Source: Dictyostelium discoideum (lineage: Eukaryota). From it: 64,000 nt of DNA. The number at the start of each line of letters is the position of its first letter. Position 1 is the stretch's first letter. The translations under genes and the position numbers were made by a program. This document shows, piece by piece, positions 5,719 to 49,715 of this stretch. The DNA lies in contig CM000155.2 in NCBI GenBank assembly GCA_000004695.1, positions 3,488,001 through 3,552,000 of the forward strand. The letters are read 5' to 3'. The notes beneath the pieces are model-generated. The model saw nothing but the letters and a program-made list of their open reading frames with translations, was not told the origin of the DNA and searched no databases.

Positions 5719-9607
<3,889 letters not shown>

Positions 9608-10298: not shown

Positions 10299-11138
10299 TT
10301 TAATATCTGTTTTGTTTGTTGGTATTTTAAATTTTTACATGTAAATATACAATTAAAAAAAAAGTTGAAAATGAAAAAATTATCTAAATGTGTGGGCACA
10401 ATTAGTAGGGTGTGTATGGTGTTGGGTTTTTTTTTTTTTATTATATTTTATTTTTTATTTTTATTAAAAAGTATTTGAAATAGTAATGATATTGATATAA
10501 TGAAAAGTATTTATGTCTGTATTTATATGTGAATGTGTGTGTGTGTGTGTGTGTATATGTATAAATGGTTTTTTTTTAGTTTATTTTAGTTTATTTTATT
10601 TTTTTTGTATAAATATGAAATTTGAGGATGATTGTAAAAAAAATAATAATTTTAAAAACAAAAACAAAATGAAACTCTAATAATTATGATCTAGATTGAA
10701 TTATGAATGATATAAAGAATGGGCAACTTTGCATTACATTGATATTACAATTGTGGTGTTTCAAATGAATTTTTAAAAAAAAAAAAATAAAAAAAAAAAA
10801 AAAATCAGAAAAAAAAAAATTTTAACGGCGCAATTACCATTATTATTATTATTATTTTTATTATTATTATTATAATAAAAACGTCGTTGAAAGTTTTTTG
10901 AACCACATAAATGAAAAAATTAAAAAAAAAAATTAAATAAAAAAAGTGATAATTATTCTACTCTTATTACTTTTTTTTTTTTTTTTAAAATTTTATTTAT
11001 TTATTTAAAAATATTATTTATTATAGTTATTATTTTTTAACAAAAAAGAATAAAGATGGTGAAGTTATTAAATAATTTTTTTTAAAACCCAAGAAAAAAA
11101 AAAAAAAAAACCTTTTTTTTAAAAAATCGTTTTGTTTG

Positions 11139-11170
<32 letters not shown>

Positions 11171-11769
11171 AATGGGGGAAATTTTTTTAGGTAAAAAGGA
11201 GTTTATTTTTTGTTTAAATAATTCTTGATTTCGGATTTAAATGAGGGTGAATTAAGGGAATGAGAAGATTACCTTTAAACCTTTTTTTTTTTTTTTTTTT
11301 TTTTCCCCCTTTAAATTGGTTGGTTTTTTAAAAAGGTTTTTTTTTTTTTCTCCCTTTAATCTTCCCTTTTATTATTATTATTATTATTACTTAAATTATT
11401 ATATTAAATCTTGAAACATGATAGTTTTGGTGTTGTTGGATTTAGTGTATTAAATAGAAAATGAAAAAAATTGAAAAAAAAATTATTTTTGTGAAAAAAA
11501 AAAAAAAAAAAAAATGAAAATAAAAAAATAAAAATAAAAAAAAAAAAATTATAACCAATTGCTGTATAAAATAAGATAATTAAAAAAGGAAATTATAAAA
11601 AAAATTTTAAAAAAAAAAAAATTTTTTGAAAAAAAAAAAAAAAATTTAATTTTTGGGAAAAAAAAAAATCCCACGGTTTAATTTTTAAACAAAAAATTTT
11701 TTTATTTAAATTTTGAAAAAGGGGCCCAACCCATTATTTTTTTCAAATTTTTTTTTTAAAAATTTTTTC

Positions 11770-12794: not shown

Positions 12795-13152
12795 ATGTTA
12801 ATTCATCCATTTATACAATCATTTACTGAAATAATTGATAATAGGATGAAGTTAGGGAATAATATGGAGGGAGTTATAGAATGTAAAAATTGTCAAACTG
12901 ATACACCCAAATGTAATAAAGTTTGTCTTACTTGTAATTCTGACATTGGTGAACGATGTTGGAGATGTAATTATTTGGGAAAAATAAACTCAAAATTTTG
13001 TTTTAGATGTAATGTTAAATTACATCCAACTTCAATTCCACCAAAGGATTCAATACAACCAATACCAATATTTACAAAACATCCAATAGCCTCTACACTT
13101 TTAATTAATAAATCAATAATTCCAACTCAATCAGAAAATAATAGTATTAATG

Positions 13153-13237
<85 letters not shown>

Positions 13238-13353
13238 CAACACAAACAATAATGATAGCAAAATTATTGATGCTACTATAACTAATACTAAAAACAATAA
13301 CACAACTAATAATAATAATATTAGTAATAATAATAGTAGTAATATTATTAGTA

Positions 13354-13427
<74 letters not shown>

Positions 13428-13637
13428 TTGAATTTCCTTAAAAAAAGTACAAGCTGTGATAATGGTAGTTTTGAAAGTATCAGTGATTCTATCTCACCAA
13501 TAAAGGATATAATTAACAATATAAACAATAGAACCAAAGATATTGAAAAATTAAATAGTGCGTTGCCGTTAAACAAAAAATCAAATTCTTCTACTTCTTG
13601 GTCAAATTTTAATACTTTTAAAAATAATAGTAAAACC

Positions 13638-13703
<66 letters not shown>

Positions 13704-14281
13704 TATAAACCAACAATAACAAGTAGTCAAACCCAACCCTCGCTTATGGAAAATAGTAAAGATATCGACAAAAAAGAAAAAATACCTTCAAATATTAATA
13801 ATAATAGAAGCACCACTATTATTTATAAATATCAAGAAGATAATAGTGAAGATTATACGGATGATGGTGATTTTGAAGAGTTTCAAATAAACTCTAATCT
13901 AACCTCAGAATCATCATCAATTGATTCTTTAATAATAAAGGATGGAGTAATAGCAACAACTGTGACATCATCAACAATAAATTGTATTAATGACAATAAC
14001 TTTGATCCTGATCAATTATCATCATCGACATCATCAATAAAGAAACCAAAATTATTCTATTCCATAACTAAAAAGAAATTAGTAAGTCAATCACCACCGC
14101 CACCACAACCACCATTTTTAGCTTCAGCTTCATCATCATCAACAACAACAATAACAACAACAGATTCTCTTGAAAAATCAATTAAAGATTCAACACCAAT
14201 AGCTACGACATTGGTTAATGATTATCAAAATCAAAATCAAAATTTAAATAATGAATCGGCAGCTTCATCATCATCATTATC

Positions 14282-14321
<40 letters not shown>

Positions 14322-15334
14322 TTATTACCAGATTCTCAAACCAATTTAAATAATTTAATATTTATTGAAAAGTTAAATAATGATTTATCTGGTAGTATTG
14401 AAACTTTGAATAATAGTTTAAATAATAGTTTAAATAGCTTAAATTCCAGTTTTAATTTTAGATTAAATTTAAATTCAATTACAAATAATGAAGATAAAAG
14501 ACTTTCAAACTCATCATTATTGGATGAAATAATTGATGCATTTCCATCTCCACCTTCAAAGAATCCTTACATTTCAGTTTTAAATACTAGTGGTGGTATA
14601 GGTAGTAATAGTAACAGTAGTAATAATAATAATAGTAACAGTAATAATATAACAAATAGTAATAGTTCAAGTTTCAGTAAAAAGAATAGTAATAATAATA
14701 ATAATTATCAACCAGTTATTTCACTACCAATTCCTATTGTTAATCATCAACAACAGCAACAACAACAACAATTACAAACAGCTGCAATTTTAGGTAATAA
14801 TAATATTAATTTTATTCAAAATCCATCATCGACATCGACAACGACAACGACTACGACTGCTTCTACTACAACTATTTTAATTAAATCTGATCATAGAACC
14901 AATTTAATAAAAGAGATTTTAACAACTGAATTAGATTATGTTAACGATTTAGAGACCATTATTAATGTTTTTTGTAAACCACTTAGAGATTTTATATCAA
15001 ATGAAGATAGTGCAAGTATTTTTTCAAATATTGAGCAAATTTGGCAAATTAATAAACAACTCTATGAGAATTTAATTTCAAATACTTTAACTATTGGTCA
15101 AGTTTTTTCAAATATGTCTGATTCATTAAAAGTTTATTCTGTATATTGTAATTATCATCAAAAATCTTTGGATAGTTTAAATCAATTATTAAAAACTCCT
15201 CAAAATGAATCTTTTTTTGATCAATTATTAAGTAAACCTGAATTAAGAGGAATGGGTCCTCATTCATTTTTAATTAAACCTGTTCAAAGAATTTGGTAAT
15301 TATCTTAAATATATATATATTTTTAAAAATTTTA

Positions 15335-44349: not shown

Positions 44350-46137
44350 ATGTTAAAATCTATTAGCATTCTTTCAAACTATTATAAAATAAATTCAATT
44401 TCAACAACACTAACAACAACAACCAAATTTATACCAACATTAATTGTAAATAATTATAATATCAATGAAACAATAATTTCATCACCATTACCATCGCCAT
44501 TATCATTGTCATATCAAATTGCAAATTATTCAAATAAAAAGAGAGGTCCAAATTTAAGAAGAAATTCATATACACATGGACAAGATGTTCGTAAAATTAA
44601 GAGAAGAGAATCAAGAGCAACACAAAATGAAATTTTATTTGAAGATAATATAAAACCAATTGATAGTACAGAGCCAATTCCAAAAAATAAGCCAAGTCAT
44701 TTACATTCAAAACCAATTACTCATAAAGAGAAATTAGAAACTTTAGAACATCATCATCAAAAGAAATTATTACGTGATCAAAAATTTAAAGATCAACAAA
44801 GAAAATTATTAATTAATACATTAGAAGAAGAAAAACAACAACAACAACAACAACAACAACAAGAACAACAAGAACTAGAACAAGAACAACAACAAGATGA
44901 ACAAGATGAAGATCATAATGTTAATAAAAAAAGAAAACAAAAAAAACAACTTGAAAGATTAAAACAATTTGGTTTTGATACTATTGAACCTGAATTATCT
45001 CAATCAGAAGGTAAAACTGAATATAGTAGTTTTACAAATAAGATAGAAGAATTTGAAGATCAATCAACTTTTGAAGCTGATTTATCAACTTTTGGTGGTA
45101 ATAAAAATATTAAATTTGATTTATCAAAGATTCAAGAATTTAATCCAGCTGATGAACTTGAGAATTTATCAAGTTTTGATGATGATGATGATGTCTCCAT
45201 TAGTGAAGAAGCTCATGAGATGACATTGGAAGATGCTCATAAAAGATTCAATTTCTCTGATGATGAATTAGAAATGTTAAATAGAGGTGTAAAGGAAAAA
45301 TTTAAAAAACAACAACAACAACAACAACAAAAACAAAAAGGTATTGAAGAAGATGAAGAGGAAGAAGAAGATGAAGAATTAATTGATGAAATTGAAAAAT
45401 ATGAAACAATTTTAAATGAAAAGAAAAATAAACTATTAATGAAAAAACAAAATAGAAAACAATTAAATCTTGACTTAAAAAAAGAAAAAACTCAACAAAA
45501 TAATTTAGATAAACAATTAAAATCACAAAAATCAAAACAAGAGATAATTGAAAAACAAGGCGAAGAGGACCAAGAAAAAAGAGAGGTTGAAAATTCAAAA
45601 TCAAATAAAAAAGTTTCATCAACTCAAATTAATTATCTTAATAGTCAAAAAGTAATTGAACATATTCAAGAATTACATAATAAAAAGATGAGAGAATCAA
45701 AAACCTACAAAGAGAAAGATTTATCACCAGTTACCATTGATGAAGTTATGAACTTTTTAGCAACCACCCATTTGGATGATTTCTGTGTCATTGATATCTC
45801 AAAGAAATGTACATGGGCTGAATATTTAGTAATTGCAAGTTCAGATTCAACTCGTTTACTTTCAAATACAGAGAAAGATATAATGCAAGCTTTTAAACAT
45901 CGTTTTGAACAATTGCATCCAGCCACTAATAACTCTGATCAATGGAGAGTCGTTGATCTTAATCCTATCGTAATTCATCTCTTTGAAACTCAAACTAGAG
46001 AATACTATGATTTGGAAAATCTTTGGGTAACTAGAAGAGAAACTGATTGGGAATTCGAAGAAAGTTGGGATGATGAAATGACTAGTAGAATTGAAGAGGA
46101 CAAAGAGAATGATGATGATGGTGATGATGAAGAATAA
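44350..46137 (+). CDS. RsfS/Iojap/MALSU1-family ribosomal silencing factor homologue (DUF143), with a roughly 450-aa highly charged coiled-coil-like N-terminal extension and a probable mitochondrial presequence. Single exon, 595 aa.
   Basis: C-terminal domain: SPVTIDEVMNFLATTHLDDFCVIDISKKCTWAEYLVIASSDSTRLLSNTEKDIMQAFKH...WRVVDLNPIVIHLFETQTREYYDLENLW matches the RsfS consensus (..DYFVIASG.S.RH..A..-GDWVL.D.G.VVVHVF....RE.Y.LE.LW). The N-terminus MLKSISILSNYYKINSISTTLTTTTKFIPTL lacks acidic residues and so looks like a presequence. It is transcribed divergently from exoc6 with about 290 bp between the start codons. Confidence 0.75.
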   Translation: MLKSISILSNYYKINSISTTLTTTTKFIPTLIVNNYNINETIISSPLPSPLSLSYQIANYSNKKRGPNLRRNSYTHGQDVRKIKRRESRATQNEILFEDNIKPIDSTEPIPKNKPSHLHSKPITHKEKLETLEHHHQKKLLRDQKFKDQQRKLLINTLEEEKQQQQQQQQQEQQELEQEQQQDEQDEDHNVNKKRKQKKQLERLKQFGFDTIEPELSQSEGKTEYSSFTNKIEEFEDQSTFEADLSTFGGNKNIKFDLSKIQEFNPADELENLSSFDDDDDVSISEEAHEMTLEDAHKRFNFSDDELEMLNRGVKEKFKKQQQQQQQKQKGIEEDEEEEEDEELIDEIEKYETILNEKKNKLLMKKQNRKQLNLDLKKEKTQQNNLDKQLKSQKSKQEIIEKQGEEDQEKREVENSKSNKKVSSTQINYLNSQKVIEHIQELHNKKMRESKTYKEKDLSPVTIDEVMNFLATTHLDDFCVIDISKKCTWAEYLVIASSDSTRLLSNTEKDIMQAFKHRFEQLHPATNNSDQWRVVDLNPIVIHLFETQTREYYDLENLWVTRRETDWEFEESWDDEMTSRIEEDKENDDDGDDEE

Positions 46138-46942
46138 ATTTTCAATTTTTTTTAATTATTAAAAAAAAATTAATAATAATAATAATAGTAATAATAATAA
46201 TAATAAACATAATAAAAATAATAAGATTTTAAAAAACTTTTTTTTCTTGTTGTTATTGATAATTTTTAAATTATATGTTTTGTATTAGTATTACCATTAT
46301 ATGGAATGCAAGTTGTAATCACTTGTTCATATGAGATTCTATAATGCAACAAGCCAATAGTTGAATTAATGTAACCTTTCATTATTCCTCAAACAGTCCA
46401 TATTTTTGTGTTTTGTTGTGGAATTCCCATTAAAATAAATTTGGGCTTTTCTTTTTTTTTTTTTTTTTCCTTAGATGGATAATGGGATTATAATTTGTTT
46501 CTCCATGAAAAACTTGTTCTTATTTTATTTTTATTATTTTTTTTATTTTTTTGTTTAACTATACTAGGATATTTGTTGTATTTTTTAAAATATAAATGTA
46601 TGGGCAGTTGAAAACTGGAGTGGGCCTTTTATTTATTTCATTTAATTTAAATTTTTTTTATATATTCATTATAATAATTAAATTCTGTTCATTTATTATT
46701 AAACTCAAATATAGAAATGGATCTGTGACCGAAAAGACGTTAAGAACATAACGCACTATTCAGTGAATGCCCAGGAATTATCGAAGGTTTCTTTATTAGA
46801 TTAATTTTAGTATTTTATTTAAACTATTTATACTAAAATTATTATTAATTATTTCTGTGTTCAAGTATATAAGGAAAATACTAATTAAGTTAAGTATTTC
46901 ATAGGAATACCAATACGACGTTTATTACAAAAAGATATTAAA

Positions 46943-47015
46943 GCTCGATTAGCTCAGTCGGCAGAGCGTGGTGCTAATAACGCCACGGTCGCAGGTTCGA
47001 TCCCTGCATCGAGCA
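46943..47015 (+). tRNA. tRNA-Ile (anticodon AAT), 73 nt, no intron, CCA not encoded.
   Basis: Cloverleaf by eye: acceptor GCTCGAT/ATCGAGC; D-arm GCTC-AGTCGGCA-GAGC; anticodon stem TGGTG/CGCCA (one G-U pair) with loop CTAATAA (U33, anticodon AAU); variable loop CGGTC; T-arm GCAGG-TTCGATC-CCTGC with the conserved GTTCGATCC B box. The discriminator is A, followed directly by a TTTTT run. Confidence 0.9.
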
Positions 47016-47018
47016 TGA

Positions 47019-47023
47019 CTTTT
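47019..47023 (+). terminator. RNA polymerase III terminator (T5 run) immediately 3' of tRNA-Ile.
   Basis: gagcaTGACTTTTTaag: an oligo-T tract 3 nt after the discriminator base, the standard Pol III termination signal. Confidence 0.7.
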
Positions 47024-47035
47024 TAAGAAAGTTCT

Positions 47036-47066
47036 TCCATCCGAACTTCGGATTCTCCGGAATTTA
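47036..47066 (+). promoter_or_regulatory. Extragenic B-box-like element (ex-B box) / hairpin downstream of the tRNA gene.
   Basis: ttccatCCGAAcTTCGGattctCCGGA forms a near-perfect hairpin (CCGAA/TTCGG). It resembles the intragenic B box (GTTCGAnTCC) and sits about 25-50 bp 3' of the tRNA, where Dictyostelium tRNA genes commonly carry an extra B box. The motif ATTCTCCGGAA recurs at 47089..47099. Confidence 0.45.
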
Positions 47067-48698
47067 TTTATATCAAAAAAAAAAAAAATTCTCCGGAAAA
47101 TTTTACCTATTTTTATACCTAGGTCAGTTTTAGATTTCATGAAAAACGTCTACAATTAAACTATCTTCCTCATAAATCATGCACCCTTTCAAAAGATCAT
47201 AGCAATTTTAAAGACCCAATGATTTCCTAATAAGGAAAACTAACTTGCAAAGGATATTGTATTCCCGAATCAGTTCTTCTAAATCTTATCTCCTTCAACC
47301 CATTCATCTTATCAACTAATATTTTATTATTTGAATTATTAATTTAACTTTAAATACACTACAGACAAGAAATTTCTATTAAAATCAAAAAAATAAAATC
47401 AATAAATGAATTTAATTTAAAATACAAAAAAAGATAATAAAATTCCAATTGCCAAAGGTTACTGCATTCAAAATAATTAAGATAAAGAAAAAAAGATAAA
47501 AAAAAAAACATGCTTTGTGTTTCTTAACCTTTTTTATAAAAAAACCACCCAAAATAAAATATATTCTTACAAGAAATCAAACATCCTAATAAATATTATC
47601 GCTTAAATAATTATTATATTCTATTTTAATTTCTATTTTTTTTTTTTTTTTTTTTTGGATTTTATGTTTTAGAAAACTTTTAACCGGTAAATCCATAAGG
47701 TAAAATCAAAAAAAAATAATAAAAAAAAAAAAAAAGGGAAATTTCTTATTCTTTTTCTTTTTTTTCTTTTTTTTTTTTAATAATAAATTAATGGTATCCA
47801 AAATAAATTTATTCAAATGTTTAAGTGAAAATAAAAAAAAAATAAATATAACCTCGTAAACTATTAATATTCTCATTTACCACCCTTCACAAACGGCGAT
47901 AAAAAAAAAAAAAAAAAAAAAAAAAACGCATGATACGAATTAATGAAACGGTTCAATTTCACTGCAAATTTAATATTTTTAAAACAACTCTACCTATTCT
48001 TTTAGGAGTTTAGAATTGTTTTACAATTCTATTGAAAACTTATTCGATTTTTATTTTTATTTTTTTTATTTTTTTTTTTTTTAAGATTAATTTGTGTTAA
48101 CAAAAAAAAAAAAAATTTAATAACCATATTTTGCACATCATCATTAAAAAAAAAAAAAAAAATCTTTTAAAAGATTTAAAAAGATTTTTTTGATATTAAA
48201 AATAAAAAAATAAAAGAAAATAAATTTTTATTTTTTTTATTAAAAATTATAAATTTTTATTTTTTATAAAAAATATTAACTTGTTTTTAAAAAGAAATTG
48301 ATAATAAATTTCTGATTTTTTTTTGATATTTTTTGATTTTTTTAAAAAGTGATGTCAGTTGGGCAAACAAAAAAAAAAAAAAGAAAATATCCTAAAAAAA
48401 TAAGTTTTTTTTTTTTTGCGTTTTCCAAAAAAAAAACTTTTTTGAACTGACCAACGAAAAATCGGAAATTAATTTATTTCTTATTTTCAAATGGAAAATT
48501 ATAATTAATATTCCAATCATATTTTCAAGTCTACACGAAATTAAAGTTATACTTTTTCATTTGAAAAAGATAAAATACTATTTTTTTTTATTGTTTAAAA
48601 TTTTTCCTATAAAATGGTTTATATTTTTTATTTTTTTTATTCCAGTATAGTTTATTAAAAAAAAAAAAACAATCGAATAAAAAAGAAAAATAAAAAAA

Positions 48699-49715
48699 AT
48701 GAATAAATTAATTTTACAAATCATAACATTTGCATTATTGATTAGTTGCTGTTTATCAATTCAACAAAACAGACAATCTTATAATAGAAATAATATTTAT
48801 AATAATATAAAAGAAATAATTGTCGATGATTATTCAGTTCCAAAATTATTAAATTCAACAATTTACTTTAATTCAACTATTCCATTTAATAGCACTTTAT
48901 CATCAGTTAATTCAACATTATCATTTATCAACAGTACACTTGGTCATTTGAATAATACAATTTCATTTAATGGAACAGTATTCTTTAATGGAAGTACACC
49001 ATTGAATGTAACTTCATTAAATTCAACTATGCTTAACATCCAAGAAACTCTCCACTCAATTCGTATTGTTTTAGAATCATTAAACACTACTCTTGTCCAT
49101 ATGAATAGAAGCTTATCTTTGTTCCAATTCAATGAAACCAGTTTAAATTCATCTATTCCTTATTATACATTCCAACCATATTATGATTCAAAATGTAAAT
49201 TCCCAGGTGGAGGTTTAGGTGTTGCCATTAGTCAAAATCAACAAAACATTACCATTTTCAACCAAACCAACATTTGTGCCAACTTTAATTTAACAAGCTC
49301 TGATAACTTTACCGTTCAATACTTTAATAATAACTGTACCTTTGCAAATGAATCAATTCATAACGAAACCTTCTCCGTTAATGATTGTAATTACAGTCCA
49401 TTCTTAAAATCATACTATAGTATTGATTTATCAACTGTTAAATTACCACAATCAACACTTGTTGTAAACTATTACAATAAAAGTTCTTGTAATGAAATTA
49501 ATCAAGAAGGTTTCAACTATATGAGTAATCACACAGTAATTGCTCATACACCAAAAAGAAATCAATCAGGTACAACTTTATTATTCTGTAATGAACAAAA
49601 TATTCCAACAAATACAACTTGTATTTCTACTCATTTTGGAAAACAAAAATGTACAACTGAAACAATTATTGAAAATTGTGATGTTACTAGAAACTTTAGA
49701 ATTACTTGTTTATAA
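48699..49715 (+). CDS. Secreted or cell-surface protein, 338 aa, with signal peptide, about 30 N-glycosylation sequons and a Cys-rich C-terminal half. Single exon.
   Basis: ATG at 48699. The signal peptide MNKLILQIITFALLISCCLS has a predicted cleavage before IQQN. Repeated NxT/S sequons appear (NSTIYFNSTIPFNSTLSSVNSTLSFINSTLGHLNNTISFNGT...). The C-terminal part has 16 Cys (CKFPGGG...CANFN...CTFANE...CNYSP...CNEINQ...CNEQNIPTNTTCISTHFGKQKCTTETIIENCDVTRNFRITCL). It ends at a TAA stop. Confidence 0.7.
   Translation: MNKLILQIITFALLISCCLSIQQNRQSYNRNNIYNNIKEIIVDDYSVPKLLNSTIYFNSTIPFNSTLSSVNSTLSFINSTLGHLNNTISFNGTVFFNGSTPLNVTSLNSTMLNIQETLHSIRIVLESLNTTLVHMNRSLSLFQFNETSLNSSIPYYTFQPYYDSKCKFPGGGLGVAISQNQQNITIFNQTNICANFNLTSSDNFTVQYFNNNCTFANESIHNETFSVNDCNYSPFLKSYYSIDLSTVKLPQSTLVVNYYNKSSCNEINQEGFNYMSNHTVIAHTPKRNQSGTTLLFCNEQNIPTNTTCISTHFGKQKCTTETIIENCDVTRNFRITCL

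Follow-up and report, generated by a model that had tools for sequence, protein, structure and literature searches.

The intact tRNA-Ile(AAU) gene described here has very probably served as a repeated landing site for tRNA-gene-targeted non-LTR retrotransposons (TREs), which have left dead fragments around it. The gene lies in a 64-kb window of Dictyostelium discoideum DNA (the whole stretch that was analysed), with DDB_G0293938, a gene of the RsfS family, and a CfaA_B_C gene as its neighbours. The former was recognised by a protein search, in which a 595-amino-acid open reading frame proved to be DDB_G0293938 of D. discoideum AX4. The original prediction for this region was that truncated TRE fragments might lie beside the tRNA gene. 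Such fragments were found at 47123-47354, at 46470-46545 together with an adjacent T19 run, and at 46317-46396, but the prediction was not supported for 46600-46940 and 47355-47519, which have no match among the fetched elements. The set used for the comparison of elements consisted of ten fetched Dictyostelium loci, designated here by L numbers, and the names of TRE families were assigned by behaviour, domain content and literature descriptions rather than by named reference sequences.

The tRNA gene and its flanks

The tRNA-Ile(AAU) gene was found intact on the plus strand at 46943-47015 by ARAGORN and by Rfam (RF00005, 64.1 bits), and showed 100% identity to the tRNA-Ile copies in loci L003 and L006. 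A motif scan placed its internal B box, GGTTCGATCCC, at 46994-47004. The first run of four or more T residues downstream of the gene begins at +5 and is a T5 run (47020-47024, plus strand), read directly as an RNA polymerase III terminator, in agreement with the prediction of a tRNA gene followed by a terminator. Immediately upstream, the 31 bp adjoining the gene (46912-46942, plus strand) are conserved as part of a 92% identical block that spans 46912-47023.

The flanks had been described as richer in G+C than their surroundings, and this was indeed the case, since values of 0.275 at 46300-46499 and at 46600-46799, and of 0.305-0.315 at 47000-47299, compare with 0.13-0.19 nearby. They had also been described as devoid of open reading frames. 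This was correct for intact frames of at least 60 amino acids, apart from a single one of 63 amino acids that runs antisense to the tRNA, but it overlooked a decayed reading frame at 47129-47308 with homology to the tails of retrotransposon ORF2.

A TRE3-type relic downstream of the tRNA gene

By published definition, TRE3 elements integrate 40-150 bp downstream of a tRNA gene and in the same orientation (PMC5911963). The plus-strand segment 47123-47354 has both this position and this orientation, for its start, at 47123-47129, lies 108-114 bp beyond the 3' end of the tRNA (47015), and it reads in the same direction. Using tblastn, blastn and protein alignment, we identified it as the relic of a TRE3-type non-LTR retrotransposon, composed of the tail of ORF2 and a 3'UTR, truncated at its 5' end and internally deleted. 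The start of the ORF2 zinc-finger region (FRFHEKRLQLNYLPHKSCTL) occupies 47129-47188, and about 480 bp are deleted near 47177-47186. The C-terminal tail of ORF2 (SKDHSNFKDPMIS and, beyond two in-frame stops at 47228-47233, GKLTCKGYCIPESVLLNLISFNPFI) extends to 47308; the natural stop codon is missing, and the 3'UTR reaches approximately 47354.

In tblastn searches the relic was matched by the predicted proteins P0014, P0027 and P0049 (63% over 46 amino acids, E about 1e-12 to 1e-13), by P0037 and P0053 (50% over 64 amino acids), and by P0015 and P0030, which align at 47123/47129-47218. At the nucleotide level, blastn matched it to L007 9011-9136 (82.5% over 126 bp, E 5e-30), to L006 8845-8981 (71.5%, E 2e-15) and to L008 (79-80%). 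The family comprises 52 predicted protein fragments, all from Dictyostelium species. In six of six fetched loci (L002, L003, L004, L006, L007 and L008), the relatives are located on the 3' side of a tRNA gene, about 45-140 bp away, in the orientation of that gene and with a distal poly(A) end of A16-A33; L008 is counted with the qualification that the fragment that drew the locus in lies about 500 bp downstream, the start of the element being apparently about 75 bp downstream of the tRNA. No full-length TRE3-type copy was present among the fetched loci.

The relatives carry a CCHC region, with a weak zf-RVT match (E 0.021, below the curated cut-off); in the relic itself, nothing is left of ORF2 but the beginning of the zinc-finger region and the C-terminal tail. 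The AX4 protein DDB_G0285547 (P0057) aligned with the post-RT region of the TRE5-like ORF2 protein P0006 (34%, E 8e-14), and in L009 an RVT_1 gene model is followed directly, on its 3' side, by a member of this TRE5-like family (P0007); the connection to RT is thus an indirect one. The relic is followed by A-rich sequence only, to 47508, and a clean poly(A) tail and a recognisable target-site duplication are absent. A candidate duplication formed by ACCTATTTTTATAC at 47104 and ACCTTTTTTATAAA at 47526 was dropped because it did not fit the arrangement in the sister species. The tail of the relic is closest to the 'KLTCKVYCIPESVLPNIISFDQFI' group, and its 3'UTR is common only to another old relic, L007 9011-9136, so that one may speculate that it represents a degenerate lineage, for example TRE3-D.

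A target-site duplication around a tail-only insertion

A short direct repeat had been predicted downstream of the tRNA gene, at 47047 and 47089. An exact 11-nt repeat does exist, and its true positions are 47052-47062 and 47088-47098. The two plus-strand copies of ATTCTCCGGAA, found by repeat search and 100% identical, enclose 25 nt (47063-47087, plus strand) that were read directly as TTTATTTATATC (12 nt) followed by A13. The original prediction had proposed a check for target-site duplications, and the pair is one, around a tail-only retro-insertion, which has the orientation of the tRNA and starts 48 bp past its 3' end. We performed 3000 first-order Markov simulations of the intergenic region, and an 11-mer repeat with at least four G/C residues within 60 bp arose in 0.7% of them, while a repeat of this kind with a spacer ending in A8 or more arose in none (0/3000). 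An analogous tail-only insertion, with a repeat of 16 bp, is present at L005 7134-7184, on the 5' side of a tRNA-Lys gene and 48 bp away from it. Tail-only insertions with intact target-site duplications provide integration coordinates that are precise to the base.

TRE5-type relics upstream of the tRNA gene

According to the literature, TRE5 elements integrate upstream of the tRNA coding sequence, at a distance of about 44-54 bp, in the orientation opposite to the tRNA and with the 5' end facing it, and carry at their 3' end a C-module of 134-137 bp followed by oligo(A). In the upstream flank, a T19 run at 46451-46469 represents the oligo(A) tail left by a non-LTR element on the minus strand. 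It abuts a C-module-like, TRE5-type 3' end at 46470-46545 (minus strand), as is also seen in L005 and L007. With the T19 run on the plus strand distal to the tRNA and the module present as its reverse complement, these relics have the orientation of TRE5.

The module aligned with L005 10670-10800, L005 16790-16915 and L007 7205-7375, in a match that is short (66-75 nt at 72-76%) and covers the distal half only. Smith-Waterman scores in a focused test were 33-34 against a shuffle maximum of 17-19, in accord with the suggestion that a C-module might be present; the corresponding whole-block BLAST scores, 74-77 bits against a shuffle maximum of 71, were barely above noise. In L005 the 3' module is about 131 nt long, preceded by a B-module-like stretch and bounded by an internal A-run on one side and the terminal poly(A) on the other, and from its length and position we infer that the 3' module of the L005 and L007 copies corresponds to the published C-module. 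The T19 tail lies 474-492 bp from the tRNA, and the 5' junction can therefore not be placed. Smith-Waterman comparison with L005 and L007 detected no recognisable TRE5 sequence between 46546 and the -48 position (46895), and a TRE5-A B-module in 46546-46895 was rejected as a candidate, there being no similarity to the B-module-like sequence of these two loci.

A relic of a non-coding repeat module was found further upstream, at 46317-46396 on the minus strand. It is 71% identical over 80 bp to three copies in L005 (11436-11515, 13535-13614 and 14449-14528), with 55 bits against a shuffle maximum of 34.7 and a Smith-Waterman score of 34 against a shuffle maximum of 14. In this D. discoideum locus, the module, a 'unit' of about 650 bp, is present in three copies directly 5' of TRE5-like ORF2 halves. 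We considered a decayed TRE5 5' region, in which a single copy of the unit would span 46292-46890, and discarded it, since only 46317-46396 matches.

Comparison with the sister species

In the sister species, D. cf. discoideum, the syntenic locus (L002) carries its tRNA-Ile at 12834-12906. The two species are 84-92% identical in the tRNA and in the outer intergenic DNA, and the blocks conserved in blastn are 46140-46291, 46912-47023 (L002 12804-12912, 92% identity), 47520-47612 (L002 13718-13802) and 47786-48698. By the same search, 46292-46911 and 47024-47519 have no counterpart in L002 and are therefore lineage-specific. Homology ends at 46291, the left edge of the lineage-specific insert block, and returns at 47520. 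The sequence directly 3' of the DDB_G0293938 stop codon (46138-46291, plus strand) is 89.5% identical to L002 11787-11932; it is probably the 3'UTR of this gene and lies outside the mobile-element block.

The insertions in L002 occupy the same two sites as those in D. discoideum, but the elements differ. Downstream of its tRNA, L002 has its own, different element, which is truncated at the 5' end, ends in poly(A) and shows a duplication of about 32 bp; upstream it has TRE5-like ORF2 and 3'-end fragments, as well as a DGLT-A-like LTR that was judged by eye only. Seen across the two species, the orthologous tRNA genes, with different insertions at both positions, offer a clean natural example of how position-specific targeting recurs. 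Polymorphism of the insertions within D. discoideum was also considered and rejected, as a second assembly matches the intergenic region apart from one SNP.

Stretches without a repeat match

The remainder of the upstream block (46546-46911) is absent from the sister locus and includes G+C-richer cores at about 46595-46640 and 46700-46790. Its blastn, tblastx and Smith-Waterman scores against the ten-locus set were within the shuffle range, and Rfam returned no match. LTR-like ends, which had been proposed for the flanks, were not found: a DGLT-A LTR in 46560-46911 was rejected because similarity to the DGLT-A-type LTR pair of L005 (7168-7545 and 10028-10405, 378 bp) did not rise above shuffle noise. 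Solo LTRs of DGLT-A (H3R) are described in the literature at 13-33 bp upstream of tRNA genes, and the boundary about 31-33 bp upstream of the tRNA was probably set by an insertion in the sister species.

The A-rich, lineage-specific stretch at 47355-47519 ends where homology to L002 returns, and gave no significant match to TRE3 3'UTRs or to the other fetched loci. It may be the decayed 3'UTR and tail of the TRE3-type relic, or further insertions. A distal TRE3 3'UTR or second ORF2 fragment ('KGYCIQ', at about 47445) in 47393-47480 was rejected, as comparison with TRE3 3'UTRs did not support it. Together, the unmatched parts of the lineage-specific blocks amount to about 530 bp.

We consider it a possible, although improbable, extension of these results that 46546-46911 and 47355-47519 represent a tRNA-associated repeat outside the described TRE, DGLT-A and Skipper families and, separately, that tail-only insertions with target-site duplications (+48 here, -48 in L005) are common, uncatalogued abortive TRE integrations. 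If true, tail-only insertions would mark the exact nick sites of the TRE3 and TRE5 endonucleases genome-wide.

The ex-B position

An ex-B hairpin had been predicted to follow the tRNA gene, and this was not confirmed. The palindrome TCCGAA-C-TTCGGA (47040-47052, plus strand) lies at the offset of a canonical ex-B box and is a degenerate ex-B-like box at best. Its fold was no better than that of shuffled sequences (z = -1.28; 18 of 200 shuffles folded equally well). Neither GTTCRANNC (9-mer, 0 mismatches) nor the B-box 11-mer (up to 2 mismatches) occurs in 47016-47145. The motif GAACTTCGG, 26-37 bp past the tRNA and kept in L002, differs from the ex-B motif by three positions in both species and may be a decayed or variant ex-B box. 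Among 12 other Dictyostelium tRNA genes from the fetched loci, 5 carry a perfect GTTCRANNC in this position, and the ex-B boxes of such genes lie at +32 to +37. Similar variants, GAAGTTCGGGTTC and CGAAGTTCCG, follow tRNA-Gly in L010 and tRNA-Asp in L004, respectively.

Discussion

We propose an order of events in which integration would occur by target-primed reverse transcription, a mechanism taken from published TRE biology. A TRE3-type element would have integrated in this way about 70-110 bp past the tRNA and in the same orientation, arriving 5'-truncated, with ORF2 retained only from the zinc-finger region to its end. This copy (47123-47354) would then have lost about 480 bp internally and gained stop codons. 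A later, abortive event of the same kind would have placed 12 nt and A13 between the 11-bp target-site duplications (47052-47098). On the other side, 46451-46545 would be what remains of a TRE5-type element reading away from the tRNA, namely its oligo(A) tail and C-module-like 3' end, and 46317-46396 is a second relic, of a TRE5-associated module. The stretches 46546-46911 and 47355-47519 are most likely further decayed insert DNA. The relics cannot be active because they have no intact open reading frame, no 5' end and no promoter module.

Several other readings of the locus were weighed against repeated TRE integration. The flanks could be ordinary unique and fast-evolving intergenic DNA, made up of the DDB_G0293938 3'UTR, upstream control sequence of the tRNA and the promoter of the next gene, with only incidental similarity to repeats. 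This agrees with the conservation of 46138-46291, plausibly a 3'UTR, with the lack of a repeat match for 46546-46911 and 47355-47519, and with the finding that no flank sequence has a second copy in the 64-kb window. We regard it as unlikely, however, since the similarity of three flank segments to tRNA-associated elements present in several copies clearly exceeds the shuffle controls, which already contradicts it for the three assigned relics. Moreover, the sister species shares the surroundings at 84-92% conservation but has nothing homologous to the flanks, a pattern that speaks for insertion or replacement and against rapid drift, and the sister locus bears other TRE-like elements at the same two sites. 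Somewhat less probable still is an origin of the ATTCTCCGGAA repeat by replication slippage or local duplication instead of retrotransposition. Slippage can create short direct repeats, the 12 nt between the copies have no assignable source element, and alignment with the sister species is ambiguous beyond GAACTTCGG. A tandem duplication would, however, have repeated the spacer as well, which is not the case; the second copy follows immediately on the A13 with which the spacer ends, the orientation and +48 position of the spacer fit the TRE3 window, no simulation in 3000 gave a comparable configuration, and L005 offers an analogous insertion 48 bp from a tRNA gene with a 16-bp repeat.

The original prediction had also raised an RNA polymerase III-associated non-coding RNA, and a pol III- or DUSE-linked small RNA gene (Class I RNA, snoRNA or other small RNA) could in principle account for the locally raised G+C in an AT-rich intergenic region, particularly as small RNA genes of Dictyostelium are short and poorly covered by Rfam. 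Class I and other DUSE-driven RNA genes of Dictyostelium are marked by a DUSE about 60 nt upstream and, for Class I, by the 11-nt motif CCTTACAGCAA. In the flanks, motif scans detected neither a DUSE ([AT]CCCA[CT]AA) nor a further B box, nor CCTTACAGCAA even when up to 2 mismatches were allowed. Rfam returned the tRNA only, both at gathering thresholds and in an E-value search of 46100-48200, where other matches fell far below their gathering scores, and the candidate stretches are not conserved in the sister species, all of which makes such a gene very unlikely. Most improbable of all is that 47129-47308 is a pseudogene of a host gene family, even though its database relatives, including AX4 DDB_G0285547 and DDB_G0286497, are all annotated as 'hypothetical protein'. 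Those relatives have poly(A) ends, varying 5' truncation and, in L002, a target-site duplication; in the fetched loci they always follow a tRNA gene; they bear an RT-type zinc knuckle (the weak zf-RVT match), and one of them shows homology to a TRE5-like ORF2, over the post-RT region of the latter. The gene models P0011 and P0014 are plain chimeras that translate the tRNA gene itself.

Repeated integration of TREs remains our preferred explanation, and it is a familiar one: that tRNA genes are landing pads for TRE5 and TRE3 is ordinary, well-described Dictyostelium biology, and 61% of D. discoideum tRNA genes have at least one TRE and 13% have both kinds (PMC5006619). Beyond annotation, the finding matters little. 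For annotation, two AX4 'hypothetical proteins' and several in recent Dictyostelium assemblies are TRE3 ORF2 fragments, some of them in gene models fused to translated tRNA genes, and are due for re-annotation.

Among known systems, the locus resembles DGLT-A in its lineage-specific boundary about 31-33 bp upstream of the tRNA, where the sister species apparently bears a DGLT-A-like LTR, but it has no similarity to the 378-bp LTR of L005. Unlike the ex-B boxes of Dictyostelium tRNA genes, GAACTTCGG does not conform to GTTCRANNC. The upstream relics differ from TRE5 (TRE5-A and TRE5-C; formerly DRE) in that the sequence extending from the module to the canonical -48 position is without similarity to the B-module-like sequence of L005 and L007; they are like TRE5 in the oligo(A) that abuts a 3'-terminal module, in their location upstream of the tRNA and in their opposite orientation. 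Compared with an intact TRE3 (TRE3-A to TRE3-D; formerly Tdd-3; L1 clade), the downstream relic is reduced to about 230 bp: it has lost about 480 bp internally as well as its stop codon, and two stops interrupt its reading frame. It is nevertheless TRE3-like in its position downstream of the tRNA (at 108 bp today and, prior to the 36-bp insertion that came later, at about 72 bp), in sharing the orientation of the tRNA, in its 5' truncation, and in its ORF2 zinc-finger region and C-terminal tail.

Results

The 64-kb window contains a single tRNA gene, tRNA-Ile(AAU) (46943-47015, plus strand; 64.1 bits against the Rfam tRNA model). It is followed by a T5 run (47020-47024) and lies in a 2.56-kb spacer between DDB_G0293938, which encodes an RsfS-family protein in strain AX4 (44350-46137; 595-aa ORF), and the next gene, a member of the CfaA_B_C family (48699-49715). 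The G+C content of the tRNA flanks was 0.275 to 0.315, compared to 0.13-0.19 in the adjoining DNA. A second D. discoideum assembly showed 99.5% identity across 21.8 kb, with a single SNP in the intergenic region, and the same arrangement is therefore present in both D. discoideum assemblies compared.

The corresponding locus of the sister species 'Dictyostelium cf. discoideum' (L002) was syntenic, sharing gene order and the tRNA-Ile gene, and the RsfS proteins were 89% identical. Colinear blocks were found at 46140-46291 (87-90%), 46912-47023 (the tRNA and 31 bp upstream; 92%), 47520-47612 (75%) and 47786-48698 (84%). Alignment of the syntenic locus revealed no L002 counterpart of 46292-46911 and 47024-47519, essentially the stretches flagged in the original prediction, indicating that these are lineage-specific insertions or replacements and not slowly drifting spacer. 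The block at 47786-48698, the 900 bp 5' of the CfaA_B_C gene, is conserved although its G+C is very low and its homopolymer runs are long, and is probably the promoter and 5'UTR of that gene.

The orthologous tRNA-Ile gene bears a different set of elements (L002 11933-13717). Downstream of it is a young, 5'-truncated TRE3-type copy of ~550 bp (12999-13549) with a 3' poly(A), bounded by a direct repeat of ~32 bp (target-site duplication), and the minus strand upstream carries TRE5-like pieces: a 3' end and a fragment of the zinc-knuckle portion of ORF2. We conclude that the same tRNA-Ile gene has been independently targeted in two sister lineages. A DGLT-A-like solo LTR, seen by eye only, lies ~33 bp upstream of the L002 tRNA.

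The tail of the downstream ORF in L002, KEYCIPVSVLPNKVMVEQFI, resembled a reading frame in the window, KGYCIPESVLLNLISFNPFI, and this resemblance prompted protein searches seeded from fragments of this type. These searches recovered a family whose 52 members, all of them predicted protein fragments, come exclusively from Dictyostelium (D. discoideum, D. cf. discoideum, D. citrinum, D. dimigraforme and D. firmibasis). The window frame (47129-47308) matched P0014, P0027 and P0049 at 63% across 46 aa, and P0037 and P0053 at 50% across 64 aa, while P0015 and P0030 aligned to 47123/47129-47218, the start of the zinc-finger region (FRFH.RCLP.NYLH.K.C..C). At the DNA level, 47235-47354 was 82.5% identical to another old relic in D. 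discoideum locus L007 (E 5e-30), 47186-47307 was 71.5% identical to L006, and 47129-47176 and 47237-47307 were 79-80% identical to L008, relative to which ~480 bp is absent near 47177-47186. The frame carries two in-frame stops (47228-47233) and has lost its natural stop codon. The relic now begins 108 bp beyond the tRNA; before a younger 36-bp insertion, the distance would have been ~72 bp. Neither a target-site duplication nor a clean tail was found for 47123-47354.

Six loci were retrieved for the family (tRNA-Ile in three, and tRNA-Asp, tRNA-Leu and tRNA-Thr in the others). In each of them the element lay downstream of the tRNA gene and in its orientation, roughly 45-140 bp away, its truncated 5' end nearer the tRNA and its poly(A) farther from it. 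The L008 locus was retrieved through a protein fragment ~500 bp downstream of the tRNA, but the element there apparently starts ~75 bp downstream. Published TRE3 insertions lie 40-150 bp downstream in tRNA orientation (PMC5911963), or at 14-305 bp in a genome survey (PMC5006619). Family copies have poly(A) ends and variable 5' truncation, with a target-site duplication in the L002 copy; the ORF contains a CCHC knuckle and matches zf-RVT weakly. A member from AX4, DDB_G0285547, aligned with the post-RT region of a TRE5-like ORF2 (E 8e-14) whose family is found directly 3' of an RVT_1 gene model in L009. Judged by these sequence features, the family is non-LTR in character. Since position and orientation relative to the tRNA also fit the published rule, we assign the family to TRE3 and regard 47123-47354 as a TRE3-type relic, a name given by position, orientation and non-LTR character rather than by a named subfamily.

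The original prediction had also placed a short direct repeat at 47047 and 47089. The repeat, ATTCTCCGGAA, does exist, with copies starting at 47052 and 47088. Between them are 25 nt, TTTATTTATATC followed by A13, with the A-run abutting the second copy; this insertion is in tRNA orientation and starts 48 bp past the tRNA. When the spacer was simulated 3000 times with a first-order Markov model, a G/C-containing 11-mer repeat within 60 bp occurred in 0.7%, and a repeat spacer ending in A8 or more in none (0/3000), supporting ATTCTCCGGAA as a target-site duplication. From published TRE biology, we infer that this is the footprint expected of almost immediately aborted target-primed reverse transcription. 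An analogous insertion was seen in L005 (D. discoideum GCA_054859385.1; 7134-7184), where a 16-bp direct repeat, ATATTGAAACTTAGTT, bounds TTC and A14 exactly 48 bp upstream of tRNA-Lys(UUU) (7030-7102, minus strand), in TRE5 orientation. This looks like a TRE5-type insertion consisting of the tail only, and it apparently lies within the start of a DGLT-A-like LTR, of which the pair in L005 (7168-7545 and 10028-10405) is 100% identical.

Two segments upstream of the tRNA were supported, both on the minus strand. Published TRE5 insertions have this orientation: they run counter to the tRNA gene and point their 5' end at it. A T19 run (46451-46469) together with 46470-46545 aligned with the module directly before the terminal poly(A) of two L005 copies and one L007 copy (Smith-Waterman 33-34 for 46470-46545, against shuffle maxima of 17-19). 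The L005 module is ~131 nt long and is preceded by an internal A-run and by a B-module-like stretch with a short ORF start, fitting in length and position the published B-module/C-module 3' end of TRE5-A, where the C-module is 134-137 bp. The shared module is therefore, by length and position, likely to be a C-module. The second segment, 46317-46396 (minus strand), was a relic with 71% identity to a ~650-bp non-coding unit in L005 (55 bits against a shuffle maximum of 35; Smith-Waterman 34 against 14). The unit has three copies of 96-98% identity (11023-11687, 13207-13786 and 14050-14686), each placed immediately 5' of half a TRE5-like ORF2 and fused to the last third of that ORF. They look like tandem copies of an internally deleted, non-autonomous TRE5 derivative.

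Discussion

The reading of the flanks as TRE remnants was largely borne out, except for the repeat coordinates, the external B box (ex-B) hairpin and two stretches that remained without a match, 46546-46911, which contains the 'complex' sequence adjoining the tRNA, and 47355-47519. These two gave nothing beyond shuffle level in the ten fetched loci (blastn, tblastx and Smith-Waterman), had no second copy in the window and no Rfam match. They are most likely decayed insert DNA, because they are absent from the sister locus and lie between recognisable relics. The alternative of a pol III-associated ncRNA found no support.

The ex-B hairpin was the weakest part of the original prediction. The palindrome TCCGAA-C-TTCGGA (47040-47052) does occupy the position of the ex-B box in other Dictyostelium tRNA genes, and in the fetched loci a perfect GTTCRANNC was present at +32 to +37 in 5 of 12 tRNA genes. 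However, a motif scan for GTTCRANNC failed downstream of both the window tRNA-Ile and its sister-species orthologue, and the fold of 47040-47052 was not more stable than those of shuffled sequences (z = -1.28). A variant, GAA(G/C)TTCGG(G/A)TT, which may represent a decayed or alternative ex-B form, recurs ~21-29 bp beyond several tRNA genes without a canonical box: in the window (47040-47055), in L002 (12932-12945), in L010 past a tRNA-Gly (8789-8859, minus strand) and, in the form CGAAGTTCCG, in L004 (9743-9756). A B-box-like GGTTCAATTTC with one mismatch to GGTTCRANNCC lies ~935 bp downstream of the tRNA (47950-47960), within the block that shares 84% identity with the sister species, and is not surrounded by any tRNA-like sequence.

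The locus adds a little to what is known of these elements: independent insertions in two sister species at the same orthologous tRNA gene, exact integration sites pinpointed by tail-only insertions, and the recognition of mis-annotated 'hypothetical proteins' as TRE3 ORF2 fragments. The AX4 proteins P0057 (DDB_G0285547) and P0029 (DDB_G0286497) are such TRE3-type fragments, covering the post-RT region and the C-terminal tail ending ..YYCIPESSLPNIISFDQFI. In recent Dictyostelium assemblies, P0011 (L003 10001-10574), P0014 (L006 8001-8985), P0012, P0055 and P0058 are chimeric models in which translated tRNA-Ile (..AQSAERGANNATVAGSIPASS..) or unrelated host domains (PF14216, PF17900) are joined to TRE3 ORF2 tails, and are annotation artefacts. 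All elements recognised here agree with the tRNA-gene-targeted retrotransposons already described in D. discoideum, and the finding is an ordinary one: TREs are present at 61% of D. discoideum tRNA genes, and both TRE5 and TRE3 at 13% (PMC5006619).
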